Shown in pieces: positions 15,948 to 42,448 of a stretch of 64,000 bases of DNA (its first letter is position 1; each line of letters starts with the position of its first letter). Origin of the DNA: Escherichia coli (GTDB taxonomy: Bacteria; Pseudomonadota; Gammaproteobacteria; Enterobacterales; Enterobacteriaceae); NCBI RefSeq assembly GCF_003334255.1, contig NZ_QOWU01000004.1; one strand, written 5' to 3'. The notes under the pieces are model-generated. The model had not been told where the DNA came from, did not search any database, and saw nothing but the letters and a program-made list of their open reading frames with translations. Both the position numbers and the translations under genes were made by a program.

Positions 15948-16347
15948 TTTTTCGGTACTACTAAGACTATTCGTTAATGATAAACCCGCTTCGCTCAGAG
16001 AGCGCCGCAGGACATGAACTGAAACCTCATAAGATATTGCGAGAGTCAGACTGAAAATTATCTCAATACTCCAGCGGGTTTGGCAACTGAATAAATCACC
16101 CATCCCTCTGCATATCTGGTCGCTGCAAGCGCGCTGCCTTGCTACCACCGCTCTGGCGATAAATCACCGGGTAAGATTAGCGTAAAAAAGACAGCAAAAT
16201 GCCGCCTGAATGATAAATCATCATCATGGAACGCAGGCAGCGAAGAGCACCAACTCTCAAATCGGTACTCCTTGTATGCTAAATACCTGCGCGCGTCAAA
16301 TAGATGAAACACGTTCAGCGTAAAAACATTACCGCTTTTACGGCTGT

Positions 16348-17586
16348 TTACTCACTGGAAACCAGTCGTGGCGTGATAAACACCACTAACTCGCGTCGTT
16401 CATCTTCTTTTCCGTCATGACGAAATAATTGCCCGAACCAGGGAATGTCGCCAAGCAACGGTACGCTATCCTGACCCGATTTATTTTTACGGGTAAAAAT
16501 GCCGCCCAGCGCCAACGTTTCTCCGCTTTTGACCTCGACCTGCGTTTCGATCTCCTGCTTATCAATCGCCAGCACTTCGCCATCGGCCTGCTGTAGCACC
16601 TGCCCCGGAACGTTCTGGCTGATGTGTAATTTCAGCCGGATGCGACCTTTTTGTAACACCGTGGGCGTGACCTCCATCCCCAGGACGGCCTCTTTAAATT
16701 CCACCGACGTCGCGCCACTTTCCCCGCTGGAAACCTGATATGGAATTTCGCTCCCCTGTTTAATGCTGGCAGGCTGAAGATGTGAGGCCAGCAGACGCGG
16801 ACTGGCGATAATATCCAGCTGCTGTTTTTGTTCGAGCGCGGAAAGCTCAAGATCCAGCAAGCGTCCGTTGATGCGCCCAATGTTAAAACCGACATGCGTT
16901 GTCGCCGTCGCTACGGAGAGGTCGCTACCAAGCGTGGTGACTTGCCCAACGCCACCAGCGTGTTGCGCATCGGCCAGCGTCCATTTCACGCCTAACTCAC
17001 GCAAACTTTTTTCATTAATGGTGACAATATGCGCCGACAGCTCAACCTGCCCGACCGGCAGATCCATTTGCGCTACCCACTGTTCAAGCGCGCTTAACGC
17101 CGTTTTGTTATCTCGTAGCAAAAGGCGATTGGTGCGTTTATCGACGGTCATACTCCCTTTGGCACTCAGTAGCTTCTCCCCCGCTTTCGCCAGTTCTCCC
17201 GCGTCGGCGTATTGCAGGGTTATACTGCGATTTTCCAGCGGCAGATTTGCCTGCGCCCGCGCCTGCTCCGCCTCCTGGCGGGCGATATTGTTATTCTGCC
17301 AGGCAATGGAATGCACTGAGAGAATGTTGCCTTCCTGCCGCGTTATCAGTCCGGCGCTTTTCACTACAGTTTGTAGTGCCTGCTTCCAGGGAACATCTGT
17401 TAGATGTAACGACACCGTACCGCTGACGTCTGGCGACACGACCAGGTTCAACTTCTCCTGTTCAGCCAGCGCCTGCAACACCTGAGCTACCGGAACGTCA
17501 TCCACCATCAGCGTCACTTTTTGCGGCTTTGCCGCCTGTACGCCGGGTATCAGCATCAACAGTAGTGCGGCTATCCATTGCTTCAT
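16348..17586 (-). CDS. hofQ: Outer-membrane secretin of the Hof DNA-uptake / type IV pilus-like system
   Basis: 412-aa ORF with an N-terminal signal peptide (MKQWIAALLLMLIPGVQA) and a C-terminal secretin domain. Confidence 0.93.
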   Translation of the reverse strand: MKQWIAALLLMLIPGVQAAKPQKVTLMVDDVPVAQVLQALAEQEKLNLVVSPDVSGTVSLHLTDVPWKQALQTVVKSAGLITRQEGNILSVHSIAWQNNNIARQEAEQARAQANLPLENRSITLQYADAGELAKAGEKLLSAKGSMTVDKRTNRLLLRDNKTALSALEQWVAQMDLPVGQVELSAHIVTINEKSLRELGVKWTLADAQHAGGVGQVTTLGSDLSVATATTHVGFNIGRINGRLLDLELSALEQKQQLDIIASPRLLASHLQPASIKQGSEIPYQVSSGESGATSVEFKEAVLGMEVTPTVLQKGRIRLKLHISQNVPGQVLQQADGEVLAIDKQEIETQVEVKSGETLALGGIFTRKNKSGQDSVPLLGDIPWFGQLFRHDGKEDERRELVVFITPRLVSSE

Positions 17587-17902
17587 TTGTATCTCCTTGC
17601 CGTTGCCACAACCATTGTGGCGGTTCGCAGTTTGTCCCGGTACCCAGCGTTAGTACGTCTGGCGTCAGCTGTAAAATTGTCCAGCCGTTTTCCAGCACAT
17701 CGTTTTGCTGCACCCGTCGCCATTTCTTTTGCCCGTCTTTTATTACACCGATGATGCGCTCGCCTCGCCCTACCATCCCCTGATAGCGCCACTGGCTAAG
17801 TTCGCTAATCCGGCATAGATCTTCCGGCGGTTTAAAAGGGTCACGCATACCGGTTAAAAGGCACAATGCAATACCTGCCAACAACCAGCGTTTAACCCTC
17901 AT
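17498..17902 (-). CDS. hofP: PilP-like DNA utilization protein
   Basis: ORF track 17498..17941; internal ATG at 17900-17902 (MRVKRWLLAGIALC...) gives the 134-aa lipoprotein-like product; overlaps hofQ by 89 nt in another frame. Confidence 0.8.
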   Translation of the reverse strand: MRVKRWLLAGIALCLLTGMRDPFKPPEDLCRISELSQWRYQGMVGRGERIIGVIKDGQKKWRRVQQNDVLENGWTILQLTPDVLTLGTGTNCEPPQWLWQRQGDTNEAMDSRTTVDADTRRTGGKAAKSDADGG

Positions 17903-18332
17903 GCGGCGTCTCCAGTTGTAGCGTGAACAAAAGATCATCACCTTCCACGCTTAACGAAAAACGGCTCACGCTGACGTTGCGCTCTGCCAGCCGTGTAAAT
18001 GCCGACGGCACTGCTTCCCACAGCGTTTTCAACGCCAACTCGCCTCCCTGCGCGGATGGATGCCAGGAAACCAGTTGCGCGCCGGATAACTGAAAATCCA
18101 GTGGCGAAAAGGGCAGCGTTTTTTCCTCGCTGAAGGGAGTGGTGTCTACCAGGCGATACAGTGCGGCCCACTGCTGGTGATGACTTGCCCGTAGTCGAAT
18201 TAATGCGTCGCGCTCTTCATGGTGTGTCGATGACAGAAAAATGAGCGTAACTAACATCAGCAACCAGAATGCCCAGCAAAGCTGGCGGAGGCGGGGTGAT
18301 GTGGCGAACCACCAGTCAAAGAACATGTTCAT
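17892..18332 (-). CDS. hofO: PilO-like DNA utilization protein
   Basis: 146-aa ORF with one N-terminal TM helix; 11-nt overlap with hofP. Confidence 0.85.
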   Translation of the reverse strand: MNMFFDWWFATSPRLRQLCWAFWLLMLVTLIFLSSTHHEERDALIRLRASHHQQWAALYRLVDTTPFSEEKTLPFSPLDFQLSGAQLVSWHPSAQGGELALKTLWEAVPSAFTRLAERNVSVSRFSLSVEGDDLLFTLQLETPHEG

Positions 18333-18855
18333 CGCTAACCTTCCTTGTTAACTGATACTCAAATTGCCAGCGTCCCTGCGCATCCTGCTGCGTGGCTCCC
18401 CGCTGATTGAGATGAAAAGATGCATCCTGGCGGAGTGACGTTTCTAGTGCGTTTAACGCGGTAATGCTTGTTGTCAGCCCCTTGATCTCCAGCGTTCCCT
18501 GCTGCCAGCTTATCGTTGTCAGCCAGGCGTGCTCGGGTAAAAGCGCCGCCAGTGCTTCCAGCGCAGATTGCCAGTCGCGGGTAAATTGTCGCTGGCGCTG
18601 CCGTTGCGAACGCTGTTCGCGTAACTGCTGTTGCTCCAGCAAACGTGGCTTCGTTATCTGTAAGCTGCGGGCGAGTTGTTGTTCCGCCTGAAGCAAAACT
18701 GCGTCTATGCGCGCTTCGGCGCTGCCTGTCAGACGCAGTATTAGCGTTATCCCGACGGCCAGCAGCAGAGGCGCAACGAACATCAGCAACCAGAAACGCA
18801 GAAAAGCGGTCCGGCGTTGCTGTCGCCAGGGCAAAAAATTAATTGGCGGGTTCAT
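18316..18855 (-). CDS. hofN: PilN-like DNA utilization protein
   Basis: 179-aa ORF, N-terminal TM helix followed by a coiled-coil-like Q/R-rich segment; 17-nt overlap with hofO. Confidence 0.85.
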   Translation of the reverse strand: MNPPINFLPWRQQRRTAFLRFWLLMFVAPLLLAVGITLILRLTGSAEARIDAVLLQAEQQLARSLQITKPRLLEQQQLREQRSQRQRQRQFTRDWQSALEALAALLPEHAWLTTISWQQGTLEIKGLTTSITALNALETSLRQDASFHLNQRGATQQDAQGRWQFEYQLTRKVSDEHVL

Positions 18856-19634
18856 CAGTACGCCTTCCCAAGCGCCAGCCCCAGCGCGATGGCAAAGTCT
18901 CCACCTGGCGGCGGTAGCGGCGGCTGACGAACAGAAACGGCCTCCCAGGGATCAAATCCGCCTTCGCCACATATCGCGACGCTTTCGGGATCAACGGATA
19001 ACGCTGCCGCCAGCTCCTTCGCGCTAGTCATCCCCACCGCCAGTTTGCGCCCCCAGCTATAGCGCGTCGCCCACAGCCACTGTTCGTTATCACGCCAGGC
19101 CAGACATTGCTGATGAGAAGGTAAAAAAGGCAGGAATCGCTGTAATGCACTGGCATCCGGGGTGATCGCGCTCACATGAACACGCAACCTTTCTGCCAGA
19201 GTAAGCAGCGTTGCCAGCTCTTTGCTTTGCGCGGCAGTCACGTTATAGGCGGGACTGAGTGAGTCTTCGCTGTAATCGAAGCGCAGGGAGTCCGGATCCA
19301 TATCCAGCTCGCGGGCCATCGTCCCTGACAGCCAGGCCGTTTGCTCCCGCTCACCAAGGGACATCGACGGGCGCGGAAATGACCGCTGTAATGTGCGACT
19401 GGCGGGAAACGCCAACATAATGTGATGACGCTGCGGCAGTTCGCGACTCCACGGTAACAACGTTTTAGCCAGCTGCTGCGCATCAACAATCCGCCCATCT
19501 TTGATAATGTCGTTCTCCAGCGGCAACCGCCACCAGCGTTGCAAAAAGCATTCTTTTGCGCCCCGCACGATCGCAACCGCTACCGCTTCTTGCTGTTGTA
19601 AATGCAAACCAATTTGCCAGATCTTAAATGCCAT
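18855..19634 (-). CDS. hofM: PilM-like (actin-fold) DNA utilization protein
   Basis: ORF track 18855..19661; ATG at 19632-19634 (MAFKIWQIGL...) gives the 259-aa form; 1-nt overlap with hofN. Confidence 0.85.
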   Translation of the reverse strand: MAFKIWQIGLHLQQQEAVAVAIVRGAKECFLQRWWRLPLENDIIKDGRIVDAQQLAKTLLPWSRELPQRHHIMLAFPASRTLQRSFPRPSMSLGEREQTAWLSGTMARELDMDPDSLRFDYSEDSLSPAYNVTAAQSKELATLLTLAERLRVHVSAITPDASALQRFLPFLPSHQQCLAWRDNEQWLWATRYSWGRKLAVGMTSAKELAAALSVDPESVAICGEGGFDPWEAVSVRQPPLPPPGGDFAIALGLALGKAY

Positions 19635-19753
19635 TGTGATGATCTCCTTATCACCCGTCACTCTGACGGGTATATCAATGCGTCTGGCTTGCCTTTATAC
19701 TACCGCGCGTTTGTTTATAAACTGCCCAAATGAAACTAAATGGGAAATTTCCA

Positions 19754-22306
19754 GTGAAGTTCGTAAAGTATTTTTTGATCCTTGCAGTCTGTTGCATTCT
19801 GCTGGGAGCAGGCTCGATTTATGGCCTATACCGCTACATCGAGCCACAACTGCCGGATGTGGCGACATTAAAAGATGTTCGCCTGCAAATTCCGATGCAG
19901 ATTTACAGCGCCGATGGCGAGCTGATTGCTCAATACGGTGAGAAACGTCGTATTCCGGTTACGTTGGATCAAATCCCACCGGAGATGGTGAAAGCCTTTA
20001 TCGCGACAGAAGACAGCCGCTTCTACGAGCATCACGGCGTTGACCCGGTGGGGATCTTCCGTGCAGCAAGCGTGGCGCTGTTCTCCGGTCACGCGTCACA
20101 AGGGGCAAGTACCATTACCCAGCAGCTGGCGAGAAACTTCTTCCTCAGTCCAGAACGCACGCTGATGCGTAAGATTAAGGAAGTCTTCCTCGCGATTCGC
20201 ATTGAACAGCTGCTGACGAAAGACGAGATCCTCGAGCTTTATCTGAACAAGATTTACCTTGGTTACCGCGCCTATGGTGTCGGTGCTGCGGCACAAGTCT
20301 ATTTCGGAAAAACGGTCGACCAACTGACGCTGAACGAAATGGCGGTGATAGCCGGGCTGCCGAAAGCGCCTTCCACCTTCAACCCGCTCTACTCGATGGA
20401 TCGTGCCGTCGCGCGGCGTAACGTCGTGCTGTCGCGGATGCTGGATGAAGGGTATATCACCCAACAACAGTTCGATCAGACACGCACTGAGGCGATTAAC
20501 GCTAACTATCACGCGCCGGAGATTGCTTTCTCTGCGCCGTACCTGAGCGAAATGGTGCGCCAGGAGATGTATAACCGTTATGGCGAAAGTGCCTATGAAG
20601 ACGGTTATCGCATTTACACCACCATCACCCGCAAAGTGCAGCAGGCCGCGCAGCAGGCGGTACGTAATAACGTGCTGGACTACGACATGCGCCACGGCTA
20701 TCGCGGCCCGGCAAATGTGCTGTGGAAAGTGGGCGAGTCGGCGTGGGATAACAACAAGATTACCGATACGCTGAAGGCGCTGCCAACCTATGGTCCGCTG
20801 CTGCCTGCCGCAGTCACCAGCGCCAATCCTCAGCAAGCGACGGCGATGCTGGCGGACGGGTCGACCGTCGCATTGAGTATGGAAGGCGTTCGCTGGGCGC
20901 GTCCTTACCGTTCGGATACTCAGCAAGGACCGACGCCGCGTAAAGTGACCGATGTTCTGCAAACGGGTCAGCAAATCTGGGTTCGTCAGGTTGGCGATGC
21001 ATGGTGGCTGGCACAAGTGCCGGAAGTGAACTCGGCGCTGGTGTCGATCAATCCGCAAAACGGTGCCGTTATGGCGCTGGTCGGTGGCTTTGATTTCAAT
21101 CAGAGCAAGTTTAACCGCGCCACCCAGGCACTGCGTCAGGTGGGTTCCAACATCAAACCGTTCCTCTACACCGCGGCGATGGATAAAGGTCTGACGCTGG
21201 CAAGTATGTTGAACGATGTGCCAATTTCTCGCTGGGATGCAAGTGCCGGTTCTGACTGGCAGCCGAAGAACTCACCACCGCAGTATGCTGGTCCAATTCG
21301 CTTACGTCAGGGGCTGGGTCAGTCGAAAAACGTGGTGATGGTACGCGCAATGCGGGCGATGGGCGTCGACTACGCTGCAGAATATCTGCAACGCTTCGGC
21401 TTCCCGGCACAAAACATTGTCCACACCGAATCGCTGGCGCTGGGTTCAGCGTCCTTCACCCCAATGCAGGTGGCGCGCGGCTACGCGGTCATGGCGAACG
21501 GCGGCTTCCTGGTGGACCCGTGGTTTATCAGCAAAATTGAAAACGATCAGGGCGGCGTGATTTTCGAAGCGAAACCGAAAGTAGCCTGCCCGGAATGCGA
21601 TATTCCGGTGATTTACGGTGATACGCAGAAATCGAACGTGCTGGAAAATAACGATGTTGAAGATGTCGCTATCTCCCGCGAGCAGCAGAATGTTTCTGTA
21701 CCAATGCCGCAGCTGGAGCAGGCAAATCAGGCGTTAGTGGCGAAGACTGGCGCGCAGGAGTACGCACCGCACGTCATCAACACTCCGCTGGCATTCCTGA
21801 TTAAGAGTGCTTTGAACACCAATATCTTTGGTGAGCCAGGCTGGCAGGGTACTGGCTGGCGTGCAGGTCGTGATTTGCAGCGTCGCGATATCGGCGGGAA
21901 AACCGGGACCACTAACAGTTCGAAAGATGCGTGGTTCTCGGGTTACGGTCCGGGCGTTGTGACCTCGGTCTGGATTGGCTTTGATGATCACCGTCGTAAT
22001 CTCGGTCATACAACGGCTTCCGGAGCGATTAAAGATCAGATCTCAGGTTACGAAGGCGGTGCCAAGAGTGCCCAGCCTGCATGGGACGCTTATATGAAAG
22101 CCGTTCTTGAAGGTGTGCCGGAGCAGCCGCTGACGCCGCCACCGGGTATTGTGACGGTGAATATCGATCGCAGCACCGGGCAGTTAGCTAATGGTGGCAA
22201 CAGCCGCGAAGAGTATTTCATCGAAGGTACGCAGCCGACACAACAGGCAGTGCACGAGGTGGGAACGACCATTATCGATAATGGCGAGGCACAGGAATTG
22301 TTCTGA
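19754..22306 (+). CDS. mrcA: Penicillin-binding protein 1A (bifunctional glycosyltransferase/transpeptidase)
   Basis: ORF track begins at ATG 19730; GTG at 19754 gives the 850-aa form (MKFVKYFLILAV...). GT motif (EDSRFYEHHGVD) and a transpeptidase-type SxxK (SNIK) motif are present. Confidence 0.93.
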   Translation: MKFVKYFLILAVCCILLGAGSIYGLYRYIEPQLPDVATLKDVRLQIPMQIYSADGELIAQYGEKRRIPVTLDQIPPEMVKAFIATEDSRFYEHHGVDPVGIFRAASVALFSGHASQGASTITQQLARNFFLSPERTLMRKIKEVFLAIRIEQLLTKDEILELYLNKIYLGYRAYGVGAAAQVYFGKTVDQLTLNEMAVIAGLPKAPSTFNPLYSMDRAVARRNVVLSRMLDEGYITQQQFDQTRTEAINANYHAPEIAFSAPYLSEMVRQEMYNRYGESAYEDGYRIYTTITRKVQQAAQQAVRNNVLDYDMRHGYRGPANVLWKVGESAWDNNKITDTLKALPTYGPLLPAAVTSANPQQATAMLADGSTVALSMEGVRWARPYRSDTQQGPTPRKVTDVLQTGQQIWVRQVGDAWWLAQVPEVNSALVSINPQNGAVMALVGGFDFNQSKFNRATQALRQVGSNIKPFLYTAAMDKGLTLASMLNDVPISRWDASAGSDWQPKNSPPQYAGPIRLRQGLGQSKNVVMVRAMRAMGVDYAAEYLQRFGFPAQNIVHTESLALGSASFTPMQVARGYAVMANGGFLVDPWFISKIENDQGGVIFEAKPKVACPECDIPVIYGDTQKSNVLENNDVEDVAISREQQNVSVPMPQLEQANQALVAKTGAQEYAPHVINTPLAFLIKSALNTNIFGEPGWQGTGWRAGRDLQRRDIGGKTGTTNSSKDAWFSGYGPGVVTSVWIGFDDHRRNLGHTTASGAIKDQISGYEGGAKSAQPAWDAYMKAVLEGVPEQPLTPPPGIVTVNIDRSTGQLANGGNSREEYFIEGTQPTQQAVHEVGTTIIDNGEAQELF

Positions 22307-40956: not shown

Positions 40957-42448
<1,492 letters not shown>

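Follow-up and report, generated by a model that had tools for sequence, protein, structure and literature searches.

Gene content of the hofMNOPQ region

The subject of this analysis is the hofMNOPQ operon of Escherichia coli and, in particular, the overlap between its last two genes, hofP and hofQ. The operon lies on the minus strand at positions 16348-19634 of a stretch of 64,000 nucleotides (nt), here called the window. It is clear that this region is the known E. coli DNA-uptake operon, which is already annotated, and that the gene identities bring nothing new: the region is 100% identical to RefSeq E. coli, and positions 16000-20000 match several RefSeq E. coli chromosomes at 100% identity. 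The coordinates of the genes were taken from the open reading frames (ORFs) and from a Prokaryotic Genome Annotation Pipeline (PGAP) annotation, which was mapped onto the window from a RefSeq genome of 100% identity, and both agree. The initial annotation of this DNA had recognized the cluster as hofMNOPQ, a set of the pilMNOPQ/comABCDE type, and this is confirmed by annotation and by family and fold matches. The five genes are listed below.

18855-19634, minus strand: hofM, 259 amino acids (aa), predicted cytoplasmic PilM/GspL-like actin-fold protein
18316-18855, minus strand: hofN, 179 aa, PilN-like bitopic protein
17892-18332, minus strand: hofO, 146 aa, HofO family, one membrane helix
17498-17902, minus strand: hofP, 134 aa, predicted PilP-like periplasmic protein
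16348-17586, minus strand: hofQ, 412 aa, outer-membrane secretin

The operon was compared over 81 loci of the Enterobacteriaceae (the window plus 80 related species), with more distant, Pantoea-like contigs examined besides. The order M-N-O-P-Q, with five co-directional genes and the secretin last, is kept in 79-81 of these loci and is also found in metagenomic relatives. Within the species, each of the 5,426 complete E. coli genomes carries the hof region, and of the 5,427 records with a match, 4,854 show at least 99% identity over the 141 nt around the hofP/hofQ overlap.

The junctions and the hofP/hofQ overlap

Consecutive genes of the operon overlap by 1 nt (hofM/hofN, TGATG), 17 nt (hofN/hofO), 11 nt (hofO/hofP) and 89 nt (hofP/hofQ, 17498-17586), exactly as the initial annotation had claimed. 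The elements of the last junction are the following.

17498-17586, minus strand: apparent dual-coding overlap of hofP and hofQ, 89 nt; spans residues 106-134 and the stop of HofP, and residues 1-29 of HofQ with two bases of codon 30
17593-17598, minus strand: hofQ Shine-Dalgarno sequence AAGGAG, 6 nt before the ATG (17586-17584), within the hofP codons of the conserved R-Q-G at the end of the HofP core
17533-17586, minus strand: HofQ signal-peptide coding region, 18 codons, MKQWIAALLLMLIPGVQA
17498-17500, minus strand: hofP stop TGA, formed across the HofQ codons GAT-GAC, which encode D29-D30 in the conserved motif V-D-D-V-P

The overlap holds the 18 codons of the HofQ signal peptide, the 11 codons with which mature HofQ begins, and two bases of the codon after these. 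The signal-peptide coding region is, as had been proposed, embedded in the 3' end of hofP, and the overlap also takes in the 11 mature codons. Position 1 of the hofP codons coincides with position 3 of the hofQ codons, and the overlap length is of the form 3n+2. The fact that hofP has no in-frame stop before 17500 means that any translation of hofP must cross the overlap.

This arrangement is not particular to E. coli. In 76 of the 79 loci where the overlap could be scored (78 other species and the window), hofP runs 38-140 nt into hofQ, always in an identical relative frame, and in 38 of them the overlap is 89 nt. The remaining three are two Leclercia-like loci with an ATGA junction and one Escherichia albertii genome with a premature hofP stop. 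Distant HofP homologues retrieved by profile search belong to clusters with members named Pantoea, Atlantibacter, Cronobacter and others, and their contigs show an overlap of 44-74 nt with the secretin gene. The hofQ start is also conserved, with an ATG or GTG start codon, a ribosome-binding site and a signal peptide; the ATG and the ribosome-binding site align across 77 species, and nearly every locus has AGGAG, GGAG or AGGA upstream of the aligned start. In the window this start opens a typical signal peptide, MKQWIAALLLMLIPGVQA, with cleavage before AK. A HofQ start downstream of 17498, which the initial annotation had named as the finding that would remove the overlap, is very unlikely, given that such a protein would lack the conserved secretin signal peptide.

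In a published survey of 715 overlaps of more than 60 nt between co-directional genes, none was judged real and all were considered annotation artefacts, and the longest genuine overlap was that of holD/rimI, with 32-56 nt (PMC2478687). The hofP/hofQ pair is not in the supplementary lists of that work. The comparison of species shows that the 89-nt hofP/hofQ overlap is real and not an annotation error. It has the features expected of a conserved genuine overlap, namely lengths consistent with those of orthologs, independent support for the hofQ start and, as far as can be judged from the substitutions described below, selection detectable in both frames. The initial annotation had spoken of unusually long overlaps in the plural. 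This stands for the 89-nt overlap and does not hold for the 11- and 17-nt overlaps, which are the commonest state in related species: among 72 species, 59 have a hofO/hofP overlap of 11 nt, 43 a hofN/hofO overlap of 17 nt, and 61 a hofM/hofN junction of 1 or 4 nt. The 1-, 11- and 17-nt overlaps are ordinary, coupling-compatible operon junctions, conserved in most species.

Three further observations concern these two genes. The hofP of E. albertii NBRC 107761 (L004:4685-5086), which has its in-frame stop at approximately L004:4786 and whose remainder aligns at 83% identity, may be a pseudogene. In Citrobacter koseri NCTC10786 (L039:4891-5116) the 5' end of hofQ is disrupted, with no start near the expected site and a match that begins at residue 76. 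Small insertions or deletions inside the overlap, which has a run of five A with neighbouring GC at approximately 17520-17532, give HofP-HofQ fusion proteins (clusters P0075, of 517 aa, P0004 and P0043), which could be either real variants or homopolymer sequencing errors.

Determinants of the overlap length

A stop in the hofP frame requires a hofQ codon ending in T that is followed by AAN, AGN or GAN, and this second part is unobtainable from the codons for hydrophobic residues, Ala, Pro and Thr. The codons of the signal peptide cannot, therefore, form hofP-frame stops, and the first likely stop is the TGA in the conserved Asp-Asp, giving an overlap of approximately 89 nt. The hofP stop falls exactly at this V-D-D anchor in 57 of 77 loci. 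When the synonymous codons of hofQ were resampled with the protein fixed, the first stop had its median at exactly 89 nt, for the window as well as for the majority of species. The stops of hofN and hofO follow the same rule, being spelled by TTT-GAC (the hofN TGA, via HofO codons) and GTT-AAA, respectively. The length of the overlap is dictated by the sequence of HofQ itself.

Stops placed before the Asp-Asp anchor were seen in 17 loci, versus 43 expected, and 8 of these 17 are just one codon early. A first resampling test (mean P 0.59) had led to the overlapping part of HofP being read as a pure passenger; this reading was dropped, given that the statistic is insensitive and that the count of stops at the anchor, together with the analysis of T contexts presented below, overturned it.

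Selection in the two frames

Variability and substitutions were evaluated in 18 sequences of Escherichia, Citrobacter and Salmonella (the window and 17 other species). Upstream of the hofQ start the maximum of variability is at position 3 of the hofP codons. Within the overlap it is at position 3 of the hofQ codons, and position 3 of hofP varies least there. The codon periodicity switches into the hofQ frame at the hofQ ATG. Changes in the overlap that are silent in HofQ only were accepted in 36 of 60 possible cases, those silent in HofP only in 20 of 61, and those silent in neither protein in 28 of 127. The effect of HofQ synonymy is strong (odds ratio 5.3, p 1e-6) and that of HofP synonymy is below significance (odds ratio 1.7, p 0.15), so that it is mainly the hofQ frame that governs the evolution of the overlap.

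The hofP frame has nonetheless left a mark on the silent positions of hofQ. In the window, none of the first 28 hofQ codons ends in T, and the signal-peptide codons have no T at position 3 versus 3.1 expected. Over 77 loci, with the expectation derived from the synonymous usage of each gene, T occupies position 3 in 4.2% of the hofQ codons within the overlap and in 19.9% of those elsewhere in the gene; in the overlap this corresponds to 84 observed versus 332 expected, with 74 of the 77 loci below expectation. The depletion depends on the residue that the T would create in the hofP frame: T that creates Cys was observed 0 times for 98 expected, Tyr 6 for 50, Trp 2 for 9, Phe 8 for 17, Leu 6 for 11, and Ser 62 for 92.

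The controls do not show this behaviour. In non-overlapping hofQ, the same context classes have ratios of 0.78-1.39, with no depletion. For the N-terminal hofQ codons that lie past the hofP stop in species with a short overlap or none, 20 T were observed versus 22.6 expected. For the hydrophobic N-terminal anchor of mrcA, taken from the same genomes, 645 T were observed versus 519 expected, with a ratio of 1.90 for the Cys class. When the set was thinned to 32 loci with less than 65% identity in the segment, the counts were 0 versus 40 for Cys and 4 versus 24 for Tyr. This context-specific avoidance of T is evolutionary evidence that translation of hofP continues across the overlap, and it suggests that the HofP tail encoded there has to stay free of Cys and poor in aromatic residues.

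The HofP core and its tail

HofP matches the Pfam family PF10748 (E 4e-80), with a model that extends over the tail; a sequence search of the PDB gave no match. The protein is laid out as a signal-like helix (residues 2-17), a beta domain (approximately 32-101) and an unconserved tail (104-134), of which the overlap encodes the 29 hydrophilic residues 106-134. In the AlphaFold model the core has a predicted local distance difference test (pLDDT) score of approximately 90, and the tail one of 39-47. A Foldseek search with this model found the PilP of three species (3jc8_P, E 1.6e-4; also 2ivw, 2lc4 and 2y4x) and the HR domain of GspC (3oss_C, template modelling score 0.74, root mean square deviation 2.7 A). 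HofP is, therefore, predicted to contain a beta domain of the PilP/GspC-HR type, which by analogy may bind the N0 domain of the secretin.

In an alignment of 52 sequences, one per species, C30 and C92 of HofP (window positions 17813-17815 and 17627-17629) are invariant, which suggests a periplasmic disulfide. The third cysteine of the E. coli protein, C14, lies in the signal-like helix and is not conserved. The same alignment shows no conserved lipobox cysteine after the hydrophobic segment, where L-T-G-M-R-D-P-F is conserved instead. Positional conservation ends after W-x-W-x-R-[QE]-G, whose codons also spell the hofQ ribosome-binding site. The length of HofP ranges between 117 and 151 aa across species, while HofQ has approximately 410 aa throughout, and the tail varies between 0 and 46 codons: loci L049 and L051 have none, and L042, L044 and L047 have a short one. 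The tail, unconserved and predicted to be disordered, is probably a floppy appendage of the core.

The other Hof proteins

For HofM, the Pfam matches were weak and the sequence search of the PDB gave none. The weak or negative results of the sequence tools for HofM and HofP made structure prediction and fold search necessary. The AlphaFold model of HofM (pLDDT 90.8) has as its best Foldseek match the PilM of Pseudomonas aeruginosa (E 3e-13), followed by the PilM-PilN of Thermus thermophilus, the cytoplasmic domain of EpsL/GspL, and FtsA; the top matches are the PilM entries 5eoy, 5eou and 2ych (E 3e-13 to 6e-11). No hydrophobic segment was found from the hydrophobicity of its sequence. The model indicates a cytoplasmic protein with a PilM/GspL-like actin (ASKHA) fold, in line with the PilM-like actin-fold protein of the initial annotation.

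HofN matches the Pfam PilN family (PF05137, E 3e-9), and its residues 5-11, INFLPWR, resemble the INLLP motif of PilN when read from the sequence. HofO matches the HofO EspM-like domain PF25319 (E 2e-25), and no match to the PilO family was seen. Each has a single strong hydrophobic helix, at residues 22-40 in HofN and 18-36 in HofO. The single-pass topology that had been proposed for the PilN/O/P-like proteins fits these two; HofP, with a short signal-like N-terminal helix, is not clearly single-pass.

HofQ scores 855 bits with NCBIfam NF007851 ('DNA uptake porin HofQ', cut-off 598) and 449 bits with the PilQ model TIGR02515 (cut-off 284). It has precomputed Pfam matches to STN, Secretin_N and Secretin, PDB sequence matches to the PilQ secretins 6w6m, 6ve2 and 4av2, and a short N-terminal signal-like segment. 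These family scores and the sequence bear out its description as a secretin with a signal peptide. No NCBIfam model matches HofM, HofN, HofO or HofP although RefSeq names them, and HofQ alone has a curated hidden Markov model.

The evolutionary rates within the operon appear to be sharply unequal, with identities between E. coli and the Citrobacter and Salmonella loci (L007-L023) of 83-86% for HofQ, 63-68% for HofM, 45-54% for HofN, 39-48% for HofO and 54-63% for HofP. In Citrobacter amalonaticus AUH_CA_2023_1 (L013:2933-4249), the hofM frame continues for 439 codons, through hofN, which suggests a hofM-hofN fusion or an assembly frameshift. Among the 5,429 matches to the hof region in the E. 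coli genome collection, one is on a plasmid-typed record, and one genome has two copies.

Regulation and expression

The operon is flanked downstream by aroK and upstream by the divergent mrcA. In published work, the operon, at that time named yrfD-hofQ, was almost silent under ordinary culture, and Sxy induced yrfD 16-fold in a manner dependent on CRP and cyclic AMP (PMC1635313). DNA uptake dependent on Sxy requires hofQ in E. coli (PMC3330819). The link to DNA uptake under Sxy/CRP-S control that the initial annotation had drawn is, therefore, supported by published work (PMC1635313, PMC3330819), and the gntX gene that it had located elsewhere in the window is found there. The two features that bear on this regulon are the following.

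19785-19910: published hofM (yrfD) promoter fragment, with weak CRP binding and a pair of predicted CRP-S sites; the primers of PMC1635313 map uniquely
41765-42448, plus strand: gntX (comF-like), unlinked member of the same regulon; ORF, with the RefSeq 'DNA utilization protein GntX' at the corresponding position

The CRP-S sites had been expected in the intergenic region 19635-19753, and this is wrong. The gap between hofM and mrcA has 119 nt and the coding region of mrcA begins at 19754, which places the published gel-shift fragment inside the divergent mrcA. The fact that the CRP-binding fragment lies wholly within the 5' coding region of mrcA suggests that the codons for the membrane anchor of MrcA double as regulatory DNA of hofM. 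The two predicted CRP-S sites lie at either end of this fragment, one of them at -246 (PMC1635313). A motif scan gave only weak candidates, with 3 mismatches to TGCGA-N6-TCGCA; the candidate for this site is TGCAAATTCCGATGCA (19884-19899). A scan of the window for this motif with up to 2 mismatches gave fewer matches than shuffled sequence, and none near hofM. No Rfam family reached its gathering score anywhere in the 64-kb window, and a scan for promoters and terminators was unremarkable.

Folding of the messenger RNA (mRNA) around the hofQ start gave no more structure than that of its shuffles (z -0.57), and the minimum-energy fold leaves the ribosome-binding site unpaired. Coupling by termination and reinitiation collapses at a distance of approximately 20 nt between stop and start (PMC10666635). 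Given that the hofP stop is 89 nt past the hofQ start, that the mRNA has no structure beyond that of shuffles and that hofQ has its own AAGGAG, hofQ most likely initiates independently, from its own strong ribosome-binding site, and not by termination and reinitiation.

Interpretation of the overlap

The explanation that we favour, to which we give a probability of roughly 0.7 as a whole, is that of a known operon with a genuine overlap whose extent is set by HofQ and with a HofP tail that is tolerated and kept in check by selection. HofM, HofN, HofO and HofP would be the inner-membrane alignment proteins, and HofQ the outer-membrane secretin, of a type IV pilus or DNA-uptake machine that CRP plus Sxy turn on. 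With no stop in hofP before the hofQ start, ribosomes would continue, one base out of step, through the hofQ ribosome-binding site, the start and the signal-peptide codons, until the TGA in the Asp-Asp codons (GAT GAC) of HofQ, which would leave a 29-residue hydrophilic tail on HofP. Selection on this tail would make the silent third positions of hofQ avoid T where Cys, Tyr, Trp or an early stop would enter HofP. Stray cysteines in the tail might disturb the invariant C30-C92 pair of the periplasmic HofP.

Several points weigh against this explanation. The operon is barely expressed in laboratory culture, and the support for translation is evolutionary. The species are related, and the counts are not independent events, a problem that the thinning reduces without removing it. 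The mild depletion of T in harmless Ser contexts (ratio 0.67) would be compatible with a slight bias, independent of the frame, at the 5' end of hofQ. The n-, h- and c-regions of the HofQ signal peptide and its cleavage site were judged by eye, and it is we who infer the disulfide rationale for the avoidance of Cys. Finally, the persistence of the overlap in approximately 96% of the species, together with fewer early stops than expected, could mean that the tail has a positive function.

This last possibility, in which selection keeps the overlap because the tail serves, for example, as a flexible arm touching HofQ, peptidoglycan or DNA, is rather unlikely in our view. It would account for the 76 of 79 scorable species that keep the overlap and for the same state in the Erwiniaceae-like contigs, for the shortage of early stops (17 versus 43), for the strongly policed composition of the tail and for a Pfam HofP model that spans it. 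It fits poorly with a tail that has no positional conservation after W-x-W-x-R-[QE]-G, is predicted to be disordered, varies between 0 and 46 codons and is wholly absent in two lineages, and with the lack of a significant excess of HofP-silent changes. Stops are also avoided less than Cys and Tyr codons, which is better explained by a tail that must do no harm than by one that must be full length. The overlap could instead be an expression device, in which hofP ribosomes crossing the hofQ ribosome-binding site set the ratio of HofP to HofQ by opening the mRNA or by blocking initiation. HofP-like proteins and secretins form complexes in related machines (the PilP-PilQ and GspC-GspD structures) and overlaps chain all five genes, which would suit such a device. 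The distance of 89 nt, well past the approximately 20 nt at which coupling fails (PMC10666635), the unpaired ribosome-binding site in a region no more structured than shuffles (z -0.57), the strong AAGGAG of hofQ itself and the two lineages with a plain ATGA junction make this quite improbable.

An annotation artefact, with the true hofQ start downstream or a shorter hofP, has in its favour that most annotated overlaps of more than 60 nt between co-directional genes are artefacts (PMC2478687) and that hofQ codons 11, 24 and 27 offer an in-frame ATG or GTG. A shorter HofQ would have no signal peptide, however, and the ATG and ribosome-binding site align across 77 species, with the codon periodicity changing to the hofQ frame at this ATG. 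The other gene gives no better opening, with no in-frame stop in hofP before 17500 and a signature of T avoidance which indicates that its frame is read, and we consider an artefact very unlikely. It is scarcely credible that programmed frameshifting yields a HofP-HofQ fusion protein. Public protein clusters do hold HofP-HofQ proteins joined in the overlap (29 members in P0075 and 72 in P0004), with one junction at the five-A run. These fusions need an insertion or deletion in the DNA, however, and therefore look like mutations or homopolymer sequencing errors; a canonical slippery heptamer with a stimulatory structure behind it was not found, and the fusion would be devoid of the HofQ signal peptide.

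Comparison with known systems

The gene order of hofMNOPQ is the same as that of two sets made up of the type IVa pilus alignment subcomplex and a secretin, PilMNOPQ in Pseudomonas, Neisseria and Myxococcus and ComABCDE in Haemophilus influenzae, and control by CRP-S and Sxy is common to the hof operon and the comA-E genes of H. influenzae (PMC1635313). The likeness to PilMNOPQ extends to the proteins, with the predicted PilM fold of HofM, the PilN Pfam family and INLLP-like motif of HofN, the predicted PilP beta domain of HofP and a HofQ above the PilQ TIGRFAM cut-off. There are also clear differences. HofM is approximately 100 residues shorter than PilM and nearer in size to the cytoplasmic domain of GspL. 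HofO and HofP, unlike PilO and PilP, are in Pfam families of their own, and HofP has no conserved lipobox cysteine, whereas PilP is a lipoprotein. HofQ, with 412 aa, has no counterpart to the long N-terminal part of PilQ, and its alignment with 6w6m covers residues 158-569 of the latter. The C-terminal tail of HofP, encoded inside hofQ, is itself a difference from the PilMNOPQ systems. E. coli also differs from the organisms with PilMNOPQ or ComABCDE in that a pilus or natural transformation is not seen without forced expression of Sxy (PMC3330819).

As an overlap, hofP/hofQ resembles holD/rimI (PMC2478687) in being a co-directional enterobacterial overlap that is conserved across genera, with lengths consistent with those of the orthologs. 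It is longer, with 89 nt and up to 140 nt in relatives, above the 60-nt limit of the survey. While the holD/rimI overlap is reported to be highly similar in nucleotides, the overlapping part of the HofP protein is unconserved. In the neutral model, an overlap arises when the upstream gene is lengthened at its 3' end (Fonseca, Harris and Posada 2013; PMC3887535). The hofP/hofQ overlap agrees with this model in its 3n+2 phase, in which an ATG start rules out short overlaps and makes long ones necessary, and in a length that equals the distance to the first chance stop. It departs from it in that the signal-peptide codons of hofQ leave the frame nearly free of stops and in that the composition of the tail appears to be under clear selection, so that the overlap is not purely neutral.

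Implications

The added value of this analysis is modest, given that the operon itself is textbook annotation, and consists of an overlap apparently read in both frames across the family, with a length set by HofQ and a composition that is policed in the hofP frame. Few annotated overlaps between co-directional genes exceed 60 nt, and this one is real and, on the evolutionary evidence, ancient and read in both frames, which makes it a counter-example to the rule that such overlaps are artefacts. It also offers a reason at the level of the code for the length of an overlap, in that signal-peptide codons are unable to make stops in the frame of hofP, and indicates that the silent sites of a signal peptide can be constrained by the tail of a neighbouring gene. 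In practical terms, recoding, deleting or tagging the 5' end of hofQ or the 3' end of hofP, as in the Keio deletion of hofQ, changes both proteins. Hydrophobic 5' coding regions form no stops in this frame and should, therefore, permit long overlaps wherever a gene without its former stop is followed by one for a secreted or membrane protein. We see even odds that hofP/hofQ is, in E. coli K-12 and its relatives, a true dual-coding case of the longest co-directional kind that had been claimed not to exist, in which the codons of a signal peptide are shaped to keep the HofP tail free of Cys, aromatic residues and stops, and that this principle may be general.

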